A DNA stretch of 64,000 nt from the UHGV virus genome UHGV-0134996; one strand, given 5' to 3'. How positions within the stretch are numbered: the first letter of the stretch is position 1; the number at the start of each line of letters is the position of its first letter. The notes under the pieces are model-generated. The model saw only the letters and a list, made by a program, of their open reading frames with translations, was not told the origin of the DNA and made no database searches. Origin of the DNA: a virus. Made by a program: the position numbers and the translations under genes. Positions 7,263-21,903 of this stretch are shown here, piece by piece.

Positions 7263-7613
7263 ATGCACAATAACGTTCTCAATGTTAGCCGTTCAATTCA
7301 GACAATCAGAGACTGCACCAGTGTGGTGGCATCAATCCCGTTGCGGAACAGCATAGACGAACTGCAAATTCGTGTATTGAATCCGAATCAGGCTAATAAG
7401 CAATTGCGCTTTATTTTGACGCTGAAAAGTGAAACAGAGGGGATAAAGCACAGAGTAAAAGTGTTTTCTGAGGCCATTCTGCTTAATGGGAAGCTCCGGC
7501 ATCTGGTAAGGCCAGAACGTCAATATCCTGACGTCCTGGCGCGTGAAAAAGACCTTCTTTCTGAAGTTCAGGATAGGGTGATCGATTTCGTCAAATGCTA
7601 TCCCCTGCATTGA
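7263..7613 (+). CDS. Hypothetical protein (isolated plus-strand ORF; may be non-coding)
   Basis: 116 aa ORF, weak RBS, overlaps a minus-strand ORF. Confidence 0.2.
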   Translation: MHNNVLNVSRSIQTIRDCTSVVASIPLRNSIDELQIRVLNPNQANKQLRFILTLKSETEGIKHRVKVFSEAILLNGKLRHLVRPERQYPDVLAREKDLLSEVQDRVIDFVKCYPLH

Positions 7614-7882
7614 GGGCAGGTGTTCCCTTCCGCAAAGTAGGGAAAATTGCTATCAAGTTCATCACACCATCTGCGATGGTCGTAGCACCAAAACGCCTCC
7701 CACGGTGCACGGAAATACTTCATCCACCAGGACACTCGATCAGGTATATCTGCTGGTGGCAGTTCTTCTGGCAATAATTTGCCTGATAATTCCCTTTCCG
7801 CCCGCGACAGCATTTTTTTGAGGCTCGCGTTCTCTTTTTCAAGCTCATCTACGCGCACCTGTAATTCAGCTTTCGTTGGCAT
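7598..7882 (-). CDS. Hypothetical protein, Trp/Cys-rich C-terminus
   Basis: Start at MPTKAEL within 7598-7963 ORF. Confidence 0.35.
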   Translation of the reverse strand: MPTKAELQVRVDELEKENASLKKMLSRAERELSGKLLPEELPPADIPDRVSWWMKYFRAPWEAFWCYDHRRWCDELDSNFPYFAEGNTCPQCRG

Positions 7883-8546
7883 GGTCCACCTCATGCTTTT
7901 CAGCCACCAGCGGCAATAAAGCCCTGGCCATCTTATGAACCAATAGTGCATCAATAATGCCAAGCGTATGCCCCGGCTTAATGTTTAATGCCGCCTCAAG
8001 GCGACACCTTTCCAGGCCACTTTTCTCGGCTTGTTTATGATGATCTGGTGTAATAACGTCGCCCAAAACACGGCTAATTCTTTCTCGTAATTGCTGGGTG
8101 CCAGCACACTTGATCGCTGTATCGTGGAGACGGTTAACCAGTTCGCGATAAACATGCGGCTTAATTCGGATACGTTCACCGGTGACGCCCTTTCCTGGTG
8201 CTGGCACCGAACTATCCGGAATATCCGGATAGTTGCCAGCCTCGTAAGCTACCCGCAGCCAGTGCATGAATGTTTCAGTGGACACACAACCACAGTCCAC
8301 ATCGATTTTCCCGCGTTGCTGTTCCAGCCAATGCTCAAAATTCAATCTACACGTATTACTTTCATGTTGCTCTTTTTGTCTCAAGGCCAGCACCTGTTGG
8401 GCCAGTTCCAGAACGATACCGGGTGACGCTAACCTCTCAAATTCCAATAAATAGTTTGCGTCAGGATGACAAGTAGCCTCGCCTGCAAAAAATACCAATT
8501 GCTGTAAGTATGCTGTCGTTAGAGTAGTCATTTCTTTTTGCGCCAT
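7866..8546 (-). CDS. Hypothetical protein (island early-region gene)
   Basis: 226 aa ORF in minus-strand operon. Confidence 0.4.
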   Translation of the reverse strand: MAQKEMTTLTTAYLQQLVFFAGEATCHPDANYLLEFERLASPGIVLELAQQVLALRQKEQHESNTCRLNFEHWLEQQRGKIDVDCGCVSTETFMHWLRVAYEAGNYPDIPDSSVPAPGKGVTGERIRIKPHVYRELVNRLHDTAIKCAGTQQLRERISRVLGDVITPDHHKQAEKSGLERCRLEAALNIKPGHTLGIIDALLVHKMARALLPLVAEKHEVDHANES

Positions 8547-8902
8547 TTCTTTTCACATTCCTTAGTCCATTTTTCAATGTTCATTTTGGCAATATCAGTC
8601 ATTCCATCACCTAAGAAATACTTTTTCCGGTACGTCTTGCACTTAAACCACACTACAACAGCCACCAGCCAGAAAATAAAAGGCCATACGGCAATACCAA
8701 CTCCAGCCGCGATAAAGCCCAATATCCATAAATGAAGCTCTCCAACTTCTGTTTCCGGCAATATTCTTAAAGAATTAAACAGCAGGCTGAACGAATGGTC
8801 GTATGCATTGGCAGTATAAGACATGCAATCCATATAATTAAAGTCATAGCCTGCGGCTGCCGCCCATAATGGGCGGTCAAGAAAATGTTTTAGTGTCATC
8901 AT
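8528..8902 (-). CDS. Hypothetical membrane protein
   Basis: 124 aa, hydrophobic segments LWILGFIAAGVGIAVWPFIFWLVAVVVWF, basic C-terminus. Confidence 0.4.
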   Translation of the reverse strand: MMTLKHFLDRPLWAAAAGYDFNYMDCMSYTANAYDHSFSLLFNSLRILPETEVGELHLWILGFIAAGVGIAVWPFIFWLVAVVVWFKCKTYRKKYFLGDGMTDIAKMNIEKWTKECEKKWRKKK

Positions 8903-8908
8903 ATTAAT

Positions 8909-9202
8909 TTAAGGTTCAGACCAGTTATCTTCAATAGCAATGCTTAATCTTTGTAGCCATTCTGCTAATTTCAGCATTGCTTCTCTTTCGCTTAAACCAC
9001 ACGGAAAATCATCAAGCGATATTGTTGGCTTGAAGTTTCCCAAATTATCCATTTCAACGGTCAGATTTTGCTCCAGAACGGTATTTCTTACACGGCTATT
9101 GTGCCGAAGCAAATATACTGAACGTGATTTATTGGTTTTGTGGTCGAACGTATATTCGGTAAGTATCATCTGACTTCCTCCATGATTATTACCGCGCCAC
9201 AT
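8909..9202 (-). CDS. Hypothetical protein
   Basis: 97 aa ORF. Confidence 0.35.
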   Translation of the reverse strand: MWRGNNHGGSQMILTEYTFDHKTNKSRSVYLLRHNSRVRNTVLEQNLTVEMDNLGNFKPTISLDDFPCGLSEREAMLKLAEWLQRLSIAIEDNWSEP

Positions 9203-9225
9203 AATTACTCCGTGTTAATTGAAAT

Positions 9226-9528
9226 TTAGCTATTAATCTTCACTTTTATCGCGAACACCTTTACCGGTTTATCACCGAAGTGTGGTTGTGTGATTGTTTT
9301 TATTTCATATCCGTTATACGGGACGTCAATTCTGCGACTGAAGTCTTTGCGCTTCGGATATCCCTTTGTGATAATCAGGCGGTAATACTTACGGTTAACG
9401 AGGCGCTTATTCCAGTAGTCATTACACAGGCGATACTCTTCCGTTTTCTCCCCGCGAATCATGGCATCGAAGTATTCACCTTTAACGGCAAGTTGCAGGT
9501 TAGCCATTACCTCACCTCCAGTCTCCAT
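9226..9528 (-). CDS. ASCH/PUA-like small protein (DUF3850-like)
   Basis: 100 aa; LQLAVKGEYFDAMIRGEKTEEYR pattern. Confidence 0.4.
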   Translation of the reverse strand: METGGEVMANLQLAVKGEYFDAMIRGEKTEEYRLCNDYWNKRLVNRKYYRLIITKGYPKRKDFSRRIDVPYNGYEIKTITQPHFGDKPVKVFAIKVKINS

Positions 9529-20279: not shown

Positions 20280-20839
20280 TGAATTGCACTGCTCCTACTT
20301 GCATTCAAAATATGTAAATCTGCGTGTTTTTTGCGGGTATCCAGGAACTGCTGTTGCCATTTTGAAATAGACACCTGCGTTGGATTCCGTAGGGCTTGAG
20401 GGTGCGCGCCATGCCAATGAAGGCCGTTTTGCAGAGAACAGTCATAGCCGACTAATACAACTACTTCAGCCCCTGATTCAGCAGCCAGACTGATAGCCTG
20501 CGCGCCGCTATTTACCCCTTCCGCCGGTCCACAATATCGCCTGTACTCCAACGAAAATGATTTCGCCGCCGCCAGGTTGGCTGTCACTTTGCGGAATTTC
20601 CCTCCCGGTATGGTGGATCCGTATTGCTTCCACCATGACAAATCACCGGCGTATAAGGCATAAATGTCATCGAACATCTGCCAGGAATTGTTAACCGCGA
20701 TGATTGAACAGCCAGTTTTTTCTATAGCAGCACAGTCCTCACGAGTGAGTGACGGACCGCTACCGACACAAAAAACAGTCCTAGTCGCCCTGGGTGGTAT
20801 GTTCATTCTCAGCTGCAAATTCAGCCTCCAGGCGAGCAT
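20177..20839 (-). CDS. GT42/MAF-like (sialyltransferase-fold) protein, paralogue A
   Basis: 220 aa; TVFCVGSGPS...VVLVGYD; true start probably MNIPP near 20806; overlaps paralogue B. Confidence 0.45.
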   Translation of the reverse strand: MLAWRLNLQLRMNIPPRATRTVFCVGSGPSLTREDCAAIEKTGCSIIAVNNSWQMFDDIYALYAGDLSWWKQYGSTIPGGKFRKVTANLAAAKSFSLEYRRYCGPAEGVNSGAQAISLAAESGAEVVVLVGYDCSLQNGLHWHGAHPQALRNPTQVSISKWQQQFLDTRKKHADLHILNASRSSAIQCFPRINLEAVIALLSSAVAQAPQTLLRRAECRL

Positions 20840-20978
20840 TCATTTCAGCGATTACCGGGTCCACTACAGCATCTGCTTCCTGTTCATTACGCGGCATGAT
20901 CGATGCCAGCGATTCATAATTAGCCTTGGATGACACGATTATTCTCCCGATGTTAATGTGCGCTGTATCAAAGAACAC
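20781..20978 (-). CDS. Small hypothetical protein
   Basis: 65 aa. Confidence 0.25.
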   Translation of the reverse strand: MFFDTAHINIGRIIVSSKANYESLASIMPRNEQEADAVVDPVIAEMNARLEAEFAAENEHTTQGD

Positions 20979-21002
20979 ATATGCACTAATTAATTTATTA
21001 TT

Positions 21003-21581
21003 TCACGTAGCGAACAACCACTTGTCACCGTTCAATACATGCTCAATAGCCTCACCCTTTTTAAGGCTCATGTATTCCAGGATGGCGGTTATCGCTTGTT
21101 CTGCACCATACGCAAGAACGACGTAGTAACCTTCCTCTCTAAGCCTGCGCATCCAGGCGATCTGCTCTTTCGTCGGGGCTTTACCATTTGGTTCTTTAAG
21201 CTCAATTCGCATGCCGTGATAAATACCGCATGCTTTATCGAGACTCATGTCCGGATAACCTTTTTTCTGCCCTTCAGCCTTCATTTTCCCGGCGGTTGCT
21301 TTTGAACGTTTCCCTCCGTTAGGCGTTGCATGCAACAGCTCATAGATGTCAGGGTGCTTGCGTTCGAAGTAATCAAAAATGAAAACCTGCTCGAAGTGCT
21401 CGCAATTTCCGTCGCGCAGGTCGGGGTTCTTTGCCAGTGCTGCAAGTGCCTTCGCATGTGGAGAAACTTCTTTTACCGGCGCAAGCGATAAGAATGGATC
21501 CTTTTTGGTTTTTGGCCTGGGCCGCCCCTTATTTCGACGCTCACTAAAAGCCTGAAACTCTTCCTCAGTAAAGCGCAACAT
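21003..21581 (-). CDS. VRR-NUC domain nuclease-like protein
   Basis: 192 aa; YPDMSLDK...IELK PD-(D/E)XK-type motif. Confidence 0.55.
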   Translation of the reverse strand: MLRFTEEEFQAFSERRNKGRPRPKTKKDPFLSLAPVKEVSPHAKALAALAKNPDLRDGNCEHFEQVFIFDYFERKHPDIYELLHATPNGGKRSKATAGKMKAEGQKKGYPDMSLDKACGIYHGMRIELKEPNGKAPTKEQIAWMRRLREEGYYVVLAYGAEQAITAILEYMSLKKGEAIEHVLNGDKWLFAT

Positions 21582-21583
21582 AA

Positions 21584-21829
21584 TCAGTCAAATCCTGCCG
21601 GTCGCATGCCATATTTACGCTGTTTTGCGGCCTGCTCTACCCTGTGCCATTGCGCACATTCAGCGTCACAATAAATGCCTGATTCAATCGATTCATTGCA
21701 GTAACGACACTTCCCTGTAAATACCTGGCTCACGACCTGTGCCTGCTTTCTGATGTTATCGATGGCCATGTCTTTGAGAGCTTCTAACTGATTCATGCTC
21801 AGCTCTGCATCATCAACACGTTCTGCCAA
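21584..21829 (-). CDS. TraR/DksA-type C4 zinc-finger protein
   Basis: 81 aa; CRYC...CDAEC. Confidence 0.6.
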   Translation of the reverse strand: MAERVDDAELSMNQLEALKDMAIDNIRKQAQVVSQVFTGKCRYCNESIESGIYCDAECAQWHRVEQAAKQRKYGMRPAGFD

Positions 21830-21886
21830 TTTTGTTTCCTCGTGAAGAACCTACTTAAGGGCAGAATGATACATTTCACAATCAAA

Positions 21887-21903
21887 ATTGCACTAATAAT
21901 TTT
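21887..21903 (+). promoter_or_regulatory. C1 operator-like 17-mer in plus orientation (15/17)
   Basis: attgcactaataatttt in divergent region. Confidence 0.5.

Follow-up and report, generated by a model that had tools for sequence, protein, structure and literature searches.

An apparent 14-kb lambdoid island in a P1-like phage-plasmid is probably canonical P1 DNA joined to a variable P1-family operon

The sequence analyzed here (the window) is the 64,000-nucleotide stretch of virus genome UHGV-0134996. Positions 7598-21903 hold a long run of minus-strand genes that a first-pass annotation described as a lambdoid-type early-region island of about 14 kb embedded in a P1-like backbone. The surroundings are those of a P1-like phage-plasmid, and the best matches are MH422554 (labeled "Punavirus P1"), RCS47, SJ46, P7, and reference P1. 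The left flank contains an antirepressor gene, pacB/pacA, lpa, pdcB, doc/phd, humD, and hot, and the right flank contains the tail and baseplate genes 26, 25, 7, 24, and 6. The left anchor of the variable region is hot (6979-7230, minus strand), which encodes a homolog of the DNA polymerase III theta subunit and is 85% identical to P1 hot at the nucleotide level. Between hot and the tail operon on the plus strand, which has its start at 21976, ∼29 back-to-back minus-strand open reading frames (ORFs) span 7598-21829, in agreement with the count of roughly 30 genes given initially.

Direct alignment against reference P1 (NC_005856, locus L001) divides the flagged interval into two different things that are joined at window position 15247. 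To the right of this point, 15247-25903 is 98.5% identical to L001 4343-14998 and carries the 5′ part of pmgT, pap, pmgS/R/Q, ppp, and pmgP/O/N/M/L, from where the match, a single ungapped-scale high-scoring segment pair, runs on into genes 26, 25, 7, 24, and 6. The portion inside the interval, 15247-21903, accounts for 46% of its length and is reference P1 DNA at the same map position. To the left, the window is 98% identical to reference P1 from pdcB to humD (4914-6908), 85% identical over the hot stretch (6976-7224), and 95% identical over a stretch matching pmgU and the 3′ part of pmgT (7901-8247). Sequence unrelated to P1 occupies 7225-7900, where P1 has upfO, upfN, upfM, and pmgV. The 6,999 bp at 8248-15246 (minus strand) have no P1 counterpart and form the bulk of a variable accessory operon. 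In P1, the pmgT-pmgU-pmgV/upfM-O segment with operator Op88 and the pmgL-pap block lie at the same position, between hot/humD and gene 26, and the two elements share operators Op82, Op83, Op86a/b, and Op88. Reference P1 hence carries one half of the genes in the same place (15247-21903) and lacks those of 8248-15246. A smaller difference is seen at 6908-6976, which lacks the LexA-regulated gene lxr that separates humD from hot in reference P1; L001 1997-2692, which includes lxr, is unmatched in the window, and lxr is missing in RCS47 as well.

The accessory operon (7598-15942) consists of ∼20 tightly packed minus-strand genes downstream of an Op88-type operator. Starts and stops of neighboring genes mostly overlap by 1-37 nucleotides, the remaining gaps measure 1-23 nucleotides, and the genes are translationally coupled. 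The first large gene (15217-15942) encodes an intact 241-residue protein, the full-length form of P1 PmgT. Structure prediction supports an ASCH/PUA-like beta-barrel fold for this protein type, in the form of an ASCH domain with an insertion of ∼75 residues. It is followed by a lambda Orf63-like gene of the DUF1382 family (14986-15207; Pfam 5.7e-29; 75% identity to lambda orf63 over 59 residues) and by a gene for a 71-residue protein (14774-14989; phrog_9799, 1.4e-43). The next product has 214 residues and a Cys-rich C-terminus (14137-14781; phrog_2457, 1e-118) and is the equivalent of P7 Upf87.6. Its gene is 97.7% identical to P7 and 90.7% identical to an Stx2c phage at the nucleotide level, and the protein has no detectable relative in Pfam or the PDB.

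Three mosaic proteins with an Ea22-like character were proposed from the sequence, and all three are recovered. Two are members of the Pfam family Ead_Ea22, with 236 residues (13439-14149; 5e-22) and 251 residues (11669-12424; 6.7e-30; 43% identity to lambda Ea22 over 124 residues). The third is a 244-residue coiled-coil protein (12421-13155; phrog_368, 9.5e-75) that shares the C-terminal module of the 236-residue protein; blastp aligns the two with 27% identity over 168 residues, and the C-terminal half is common to both. A DUF4752 protein is encoded at 13152-13475 (Pfam 2.4e-42). Three small basic ORFs of 62, 58, and 58 residues occupy 11135-11669 (phrog_1380 twice, phrog_13831). The tandem pair at 11135-11496 (62 and 58 residues, phrog_1380) are paralogs that are 37% identical and both begin with MKNRKAK, and the third ORF lies next to them at 11493-11669.

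The presence of PD-(D/E)XK nuclease-like, DUF551-like, and ASCH-like genes was likewise correctly called. The 171-residue product of 10618-11133 is a putative nuclease of the PD-(D/E)XK fold in which D40, E53, and K55 are invariant, forming a D...(D/E)xK motif on a restriction-endonuclease-like fold; its nearest solved structure is the uncharacterized protein SPO1766 (3dnx). Adjacent to it, 9764-10621 encodes a 285-residue EaA-type protein with a C-terminal DUF551 domain (Pfam 2.5e-10), and it is annotated as EaA or DUF551 in MH422554 and RCS47. An 86-residue "eaa protein" follows at 9507-9767 (phrog_2814), named as such by the Prokaryotic Genome Annotation Pipeline (PGAP) on an identical plasmid. 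The second ASCH-like protein of the operon, a small one, is encoded at 9226-9528; PGAP and RefSeq label it ASCH domain-containing, and the Pfam ASCH match is sub-threshold (E 0.09). The next two products, of 124 residues with a hydrophobic segment (8528-8902) and of 97 residues (8909-9202), are covered by phrog_2638 and phrog_1258. The penultimate gene (7866-8546) encodes an intact protein of 226 residues, of which P1 keeps the C-terminal part only, as PmgU and the out-of-frame tail of PmgT. The last gene (7598-7882), in the place of P1 pmgV, encodes a 94-residue coiled-coil protein with a Cys/His-rich C-terminus (phrog_3797, 2.9e-59); it has no similarity to PmgV, and its coordinates are those given by PGAP. 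A sequence search of solved structures with four proteins returned no significant match, and an Rfam scan of 6500-22500 returned only a chance match to a miRNA model (E 0.067).

On a 99.9%-identical plasmid, PGAP describes the start of the PD-(D/E)XK gene (10618-11133) as "frameshifted" and the N-terminus of the EaA/DUF551 gene (10487-10621) as "incomplete". Both ORFs are open in the window and the 171-residue protein family is well conserved; the flags are probably annotation artifacts of mosaic genes.

The state of the two genes at the borders of the 6,999-bp segment bears on which of the two forms is derived. Each is complete in the window, and P1 has only truncated or fused versions of them. 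The flanks of the segment are contiguous in P1 at L001 4343/4344, and "AA" is the only sequence in common with both window junctions, a microhomology of 2 bp. The 310-residue PmgT of P1 is identical at 230 of 232 positions to residues 1-232 of the 241-residue protein; its last 78 codons read the 226-residue gene out of frame, and PmgU aligns to residues 114-214 of the product of that gene. Full-length homologs of the 226-residue protein exist in many P1-like loci. The 241-residue family has at least 8000 matches, typically of 224-259 residues with full-length coverage. Its C-terminal W-V-W-V-x-x-F motif, the last beta-strand of the predicted ASCH barrel, is invariant, and P1 PmgT is interrupted inside it. 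Fused proteins of the P1 type form clusters of 20 and 1 members, compared with 302 and 392 members for the clusters of the 242-residue form. A 200-bp probe across the P1 joint, for which an end-to-end match was required, detected the joint in 5 of 218 matching plasmids; the phage records that have it are limited to the three P1 reference entries.

Since P1 has truncated or fused forms of boundary genes that are whole in the window, the fusion clusters are small, and the short joint is rare, reference P1 is best read as a rare derivative with a 7.0-kb illegitimate deletion, and the window as the usual long form. An illegitimate deletion with 2-bp microhomology would have fused the ASCH gene to the 226-residue gene, creating pmgT and pmgU. 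The two P1 genes, still labeled "putative morphogenetic function", would then be a fusion artifact of an ASCH-fold gene and the remnant of a second gene. Comparison with P1, P7, and other P1-like elements, which was recommended for locating the edges of an insertion, does delimit a 6,999-bp difference at 8248-15246, but the difference is most readily explained as a loss from P1. Absence from reference P1 is a poor test of foreignness at this locus because the reference strain itself carries the rare 7-kb deletion.

The long form is widespread and variable. In a survey of IMG/VR, 55 P1-like loci were anchored on Pap, while a one-genome-per-species collection scanned with the same protein gave only 2 loci. 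In 38 of the IMG/VR loci, pap and humD are 2.5-9.9 kb apart (median, 8.3 kb), compared with 9.3 kb in the window, and the other 17 lack a humD within 10 kb. Two of the 55 show the P1 state, with a distance of 3.3 kb. After pap, only ∼160 bp are common to all 55 loci, comprising the Op88 operator, a promoter, a hairpin, and a 28-codon small ORF (sORF), and each of the other 250-bp bins of 7225-15974 is present in 5-58% of them. The ORFs of this hotspot fall into 94 clusters over the 55 loci. The segment of the window accordingly lies between pap/Op88 and hot/humD, and its content varies among otherwise conserved P1-like elements. The whole 7 kb is present at 99.9% identity in plasmids AP026465, NZ_CP128965, and NZ_CP126930; pMTY1887_untypable_1 has this identity over the entire segment. 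MH422554, RCS47, P7, and SJ46 share 8248-15246 in a mosaic fashion. An assembly artifact was considered and rejected, as the same sequence is present at this identity in three complete public plasmids.

Other P1-like loci carry a different cargo in the hotspot, including an IS605 TnpB, DDE transposases, an orphan type II methyltransferase, and a PAPS-reductase-like gene. In some P1-like elements, such as an IMG/VR contig (L072:11204-14836), a gene for a 1211-residue inverse-autotransporter or invasin/intimin-like adhesin replaces the lambdoid cassette, and the hotspot of another locus (L018) has the same length as that of L072.

P7 was sequenced two decades ago. Its "hea operon" under Op(hea) (NC_050152 / AF503408) occupies the same locus behind the same operator, and its annotation notes an Ead-like product. 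The hea operon and its equivalents in RCS47, SJ46, and MH422554 contain the same types of genes, namely Ead/Ea22-like genes and an Upf87.6 homolog, and RCS47 also has DUF551 and ASCH genes. The combination of alleles differs, with P7 sharing only ∼1.8 of the 7 kb at ≥95% identity and RCS47 sharing the left 3.4 kb. In a comparative study, the interval from pmgT to humD, which has the same bounds, is listed as region 8 among the eight hypervariable regions of P1-like phage-plasmids, and in JL22 pmgT is replaced by a cluster with ea22 and a methyltransferase (PMC9603915). The gene set was initially described as one not associated with P1 at this position; the P7 annotation and region 8 contradict this. 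The passages of the study that were consulted take the gene order of reference P1 as their baseline and do not describe P1 pmgT/pmgU as a deletion joint. The P1 genes from pmgL to upfO are non-essential, and the P1 alleles of pmgT, pmgU, pmgV, upfN, and upfO score as such (PMC10695390). The long-form operon, with its lambdoid flavor and C1 wiring, is already known from literature and annotations, and the recognition of pmgT and pmgU as a deletion joint is a modest addition of the present analysis.

The regulatory elements of the operon are likewise those of the P1 family. The window as a whole contains 11 C1-operator-like sites versus 0.33 expected. Those within 7598-21903 fall in the P1-core half or at its edge, at known P1 positions only. 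The Op88-type operator (OpmgT / Op(hea); 16121-16137, minus strand) reads ATTGCTCTAATAAATCT, has 1 mismatch to the consensus, and overlaps the promoter of the accessory operon; it is located exactly where OpmgT of P1 and Op(hea) of P7 are annotated, and its core ATTGCTCTAATAAA is kept in 48 of 55 P1-like loci. Two operators of the Op86a/b type lie upstream of pmgR-pmgS (18214-18279, sites at 18214 and 18263) at the positions of P1 OpmgRa and OpmgRb. An equivalent of Op83, divergent and conserved, is found at the P1 position (∼20979-20995). A site of the Op82 (O26) type (21887-21903, plus strand), supported by the consensus and by P1 annotation, marks the divergent pmgL/26 control region. No internal C1 operator was detected in 7225-15246 at three or fewer mismatches. 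The earlier statement that the island carries C1-operator-like sites is therefore right about their enrichment and about a link to P1 regulation and wrong about their location, since none is internal to 7225-15246 and all occupy P1-core positions. The accessory operon is wired to P1 regulation through the single operator Op88 at its head, with the mode of control presumed by analogy to the P1 and P7 annotations. C1 would keep 7598-15942 silent in the plasmid prophage, and after C1 inactivation or derepression, or upon infection, the genes would be transcribed as a single early unit. A scan for sigma-70-like promoters gave 6 sites versus 21 in shuffled sequence and hence lends no support to internal promoters, and no strong minus-strand terminator was found between 16090 and 7600.

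The unannotated sORF of 28 codons (15952-16038, minus strand) encodes the hydrophobic peptide MNTAFKIIMAAIYFWLFSITFGGIVAHG and is preceded by GGAG 8 nucleotides upstream. It falls within the sole part of the region beyond pap that none of the 55 loci lacks, and it is open in 66 of 66 aligning loci and in reference P1. In a coding test, variable sites were distributed 4/4/4 by codon position, which at this level of divergence gives no sign of selection. A 10-bp GC-rich hairpin (16066-16088) is located between the sORF and the Op88 promoter; it has a T-run on the plus strand only, antisense to the operon.

The lambdoid character of the region is genuine for part of the interval. Comparison with lambdoid prophages shows that Stx2c and Stx2a prophages and a P22-like prophage of a chromosome (L006) share pieces of 9236-14792 with a DNA identity of 90-98%. 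In L006, the homologous DNA lies between int/xis/eag and the genes for anti-RecBCD, kil, cIII, N, and cI; this location is the distal early-left, int-proximal "exo-xis/ea" region. Among complete Escherichia coli chromosomes, 3535 of 5426 genomes have at least one piece matching the 7-kb segment, at a total of 7216 places. Against lambda itself, the only recognizable relatives are Ea22 (43% identity), Orf63 (75%), and NinI (65%), the last being ppp, a P1 core gene. A tblastx search with lambda 28860-31351 gave matches confined to the ea22 and orf63 regions, and together with a tblastn search for TraR it revealed no homologs of lambda Orf73 (TraR), Orf60a (DUF1317), Orf61, or Ea8.5 in 6900-22000. 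The TraR/DksA zinc finger named in the first-pass annotation could not be found: tblastn against 6900-22000 gave E > 1 only, there was no Pfam match, and no minus-strand ORF has two CxxC motifs.

The operon resembles the lambdoid exo-xis/ea region, represented by lambda ea22 and orf63, P22 ead and eaA, and Stx phages, in its Ea22-type, Orf63-type, and DUF551/EaA proteins, in its DNA (up to 98% identical to Stx2c and P22-like prophages), and in its organization as small, tightly packed, presumably non-essential genes that are distal in a repressor-controlled early operon. In contrast with that region, it is not located between exo and xis; it occupies a P1 backbone, with pap and Op88 upstream of it, and would be under the control of P1 C1/Op88 instead of CI/pL/N. 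Recombination with lambdoid prophages that reside in the same Enterobacteriaceae may have assembled the cargo and may still be reshuffling it. Approximately 30% of the genes of P1-like elements are recombining genes (PMC10879196), and the locus is a clear example, in line with that study, of genes having moved recently between P1-like phage-plasmids and lambdoid prophages. Studies of lambda and Phi24B describe Ea22 as pro-lysogenic and Orf63 as pro-lytic and tie the whole region to the efficiency of lysogenization and induction (PMC7093339, PMC10869804, PMC3824215). By analogy with the exo-xis genes of lambda and Stx phages, the products of the operon most likely modulate host physiology and the balance between lysis and lysogeny without being essential, and plaques would form in their absence.

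Taken together, 7598-21903 very probably consists of 6.65 kb of canonical P1 and a P1-family variable early operon in its common long form, rather than a 14-kb foreign island. Of the initial description, the lambdoid early-region character holds for part of the left half; the insertion does not, and the right 6.65 kb are reference P1. Several points weigh against this reading or parts of it. The polarity of the 7-kb difference comes from gene integrity and prevalence rather than from a rooted phylogeny. Nearly all products of the operon are of "unknown function" in PHROG, and a role in the lysis-lysogeny decision is suggested through two homologs only, Ea22 at 43% and Orf63 at 75% identity. 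Control by Op88 is borrowed from the annotation of P1 and P7, and the operator itself has 1 mismatch. The two stretches of the identical plasmid that PGAP marks as frameshifted or incomplete raise the possibility that some of the genes are decaying mosaics.

A bolder proposal, to which we assign a rather low likelihood, regards the Op88 operon as the P1-family counterpart of exo-xis: an interchangeable, repressor-gated cassette for host reprogramming in which some members are factors of counter-defense or inter-phage competition. The PD-(D/E)XK protein, the two ASCH proteins, and the 28-residue hydrophobic peptide could be such members. If this were true, the cassette would pass between phage-plasmids and integrated prophages despite unrelated regulatory circuits, and textbook P1 would have missed such biology owing to the deletion of its 7-kb cassette.

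The operon could alternatively be a dedicated anti-defense or defense island, with the PD-(D/E)XK nuclease, ASCH, and Ea22-like proteins directed against host immunity or competing phages; an anti-defense region was among the suggestions of the first-pass annotation. Such an island appears quite improbable. The expected expression from an early, repressor-controlled promoter, the hypervariability of the locus, which counter-defense loci often share, the candidate conserved nuclease active site in one gene, and alternative alleles that include an orphan type II methyltransferase and a PAPS-reductase/SspD-like protein are compatible with it. However, among the 10 largest proteins of 7866-15942, PADLOC gave one sub-threshold match (PD-Lambda-4_A, E 0.0017, 14 bits) to the coiled-coil protein at 12421-13155, the 10 proteins compared with NCBIfam had no match, and no homolog of a characterized anti-defense protein was found. 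PADLOC matches in the hotspot cargo of the 55 other loci were limited to the IS605 TnpB, scored as Cas12f-like, the orphan methyltransferase, and the SspD/PAPS-reductase-like protein, so that neither search nor cargo supports the suggestion. Ea22 and Orf63, the only relatives that have been studied by experiment, are tied to developmental decisions instead of immunity (PMC7093339, PMC10869804).

Also very improbable is a recent insertion of a lambdoid module of ∼14 kb, or of at least 7 kb, into a P1-type backbone, which would make it a chimeric island of this element alone. Relative to reference P1, the additional 6,999 bp do look like a clean single-point insertion, and Stx and P22-like prophages match parts of them at 90-98% identity. 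However, P1 itself accounts for half of the 14 kb, the two genes at the presumed point of insertion are whole in the window and truncated or fused in P1, the long state is the majority among P1-like elements, Ead-like genes were already present at this position in P7, no ORF has a recombinase, integrase, or transposase match in Pfam, and the segment has no long flanking direct repeat, only three short two-copy repeats that all lie inside the Ea22 paralogs. The comparison of base composition proposed for the interval and its flanks shows no deviation, with a GC content of 0.476 in 8248-15246, 0.481 in 15247-21903, and 0.480 in the whole window. A compositional island was also rejected at the level of single genes, where neither GC nor GC at third codon positions shifts.

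The right half of the interval contains the P1 core genes, all on the minus strand and named after RefSeq P1. The block comprises the 5′ 696 bp of the pmgT-type gene, pap (16137-16643), pmgS (16717-17979), pmgR (17981-18199), pmgQ (18281-18982), ppp (18979-19671), pmgP (19653-20279), pmgO (20177-20839), pmgN (20781-20978), pmgM (21003-21581), and pmgL (21584-21829). Pfam matches in this block are HAD_PNKP, Metallophos, and VRR_NUC. Two of the features that had been counted as lambdoid are located here. The NinI-like phosphatase is ppp, with 65% identity to lambda NinI and a Metallophos domain, and the VRR-NUC protein is pmgM, for which the Pfam match is just below threshold (21.2 vs 23.8 bits) and RefSeq P1 gives the name VRR-NUC. 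Both assignments are sound, but the two genes belong to the P1 core because they fall in 15247-21903, which is reference P1 at the same position. The block from pmgL to pap would represent C1-controlled genes that are mostly dispensable in lytic growth.

Just left of the accessory operon, two ORFs on opposite strands, 7263-7613 (plus) and 7332-7610 (minus), overlap almost fully. PGAP and the RCS47 annotation prefer the plus-strand ORF of 116 residues; neither ORF matches a Pfam family, and the minus-strand ORF has no PHROG match either. In the core block, the overlapping genes pmgP and pmgO (19653-20839, minus strand) have weak Pfam MptE-like matches to consecutive parts of the model, which hints that the two may derive from, or encode, one MptE-like protein.

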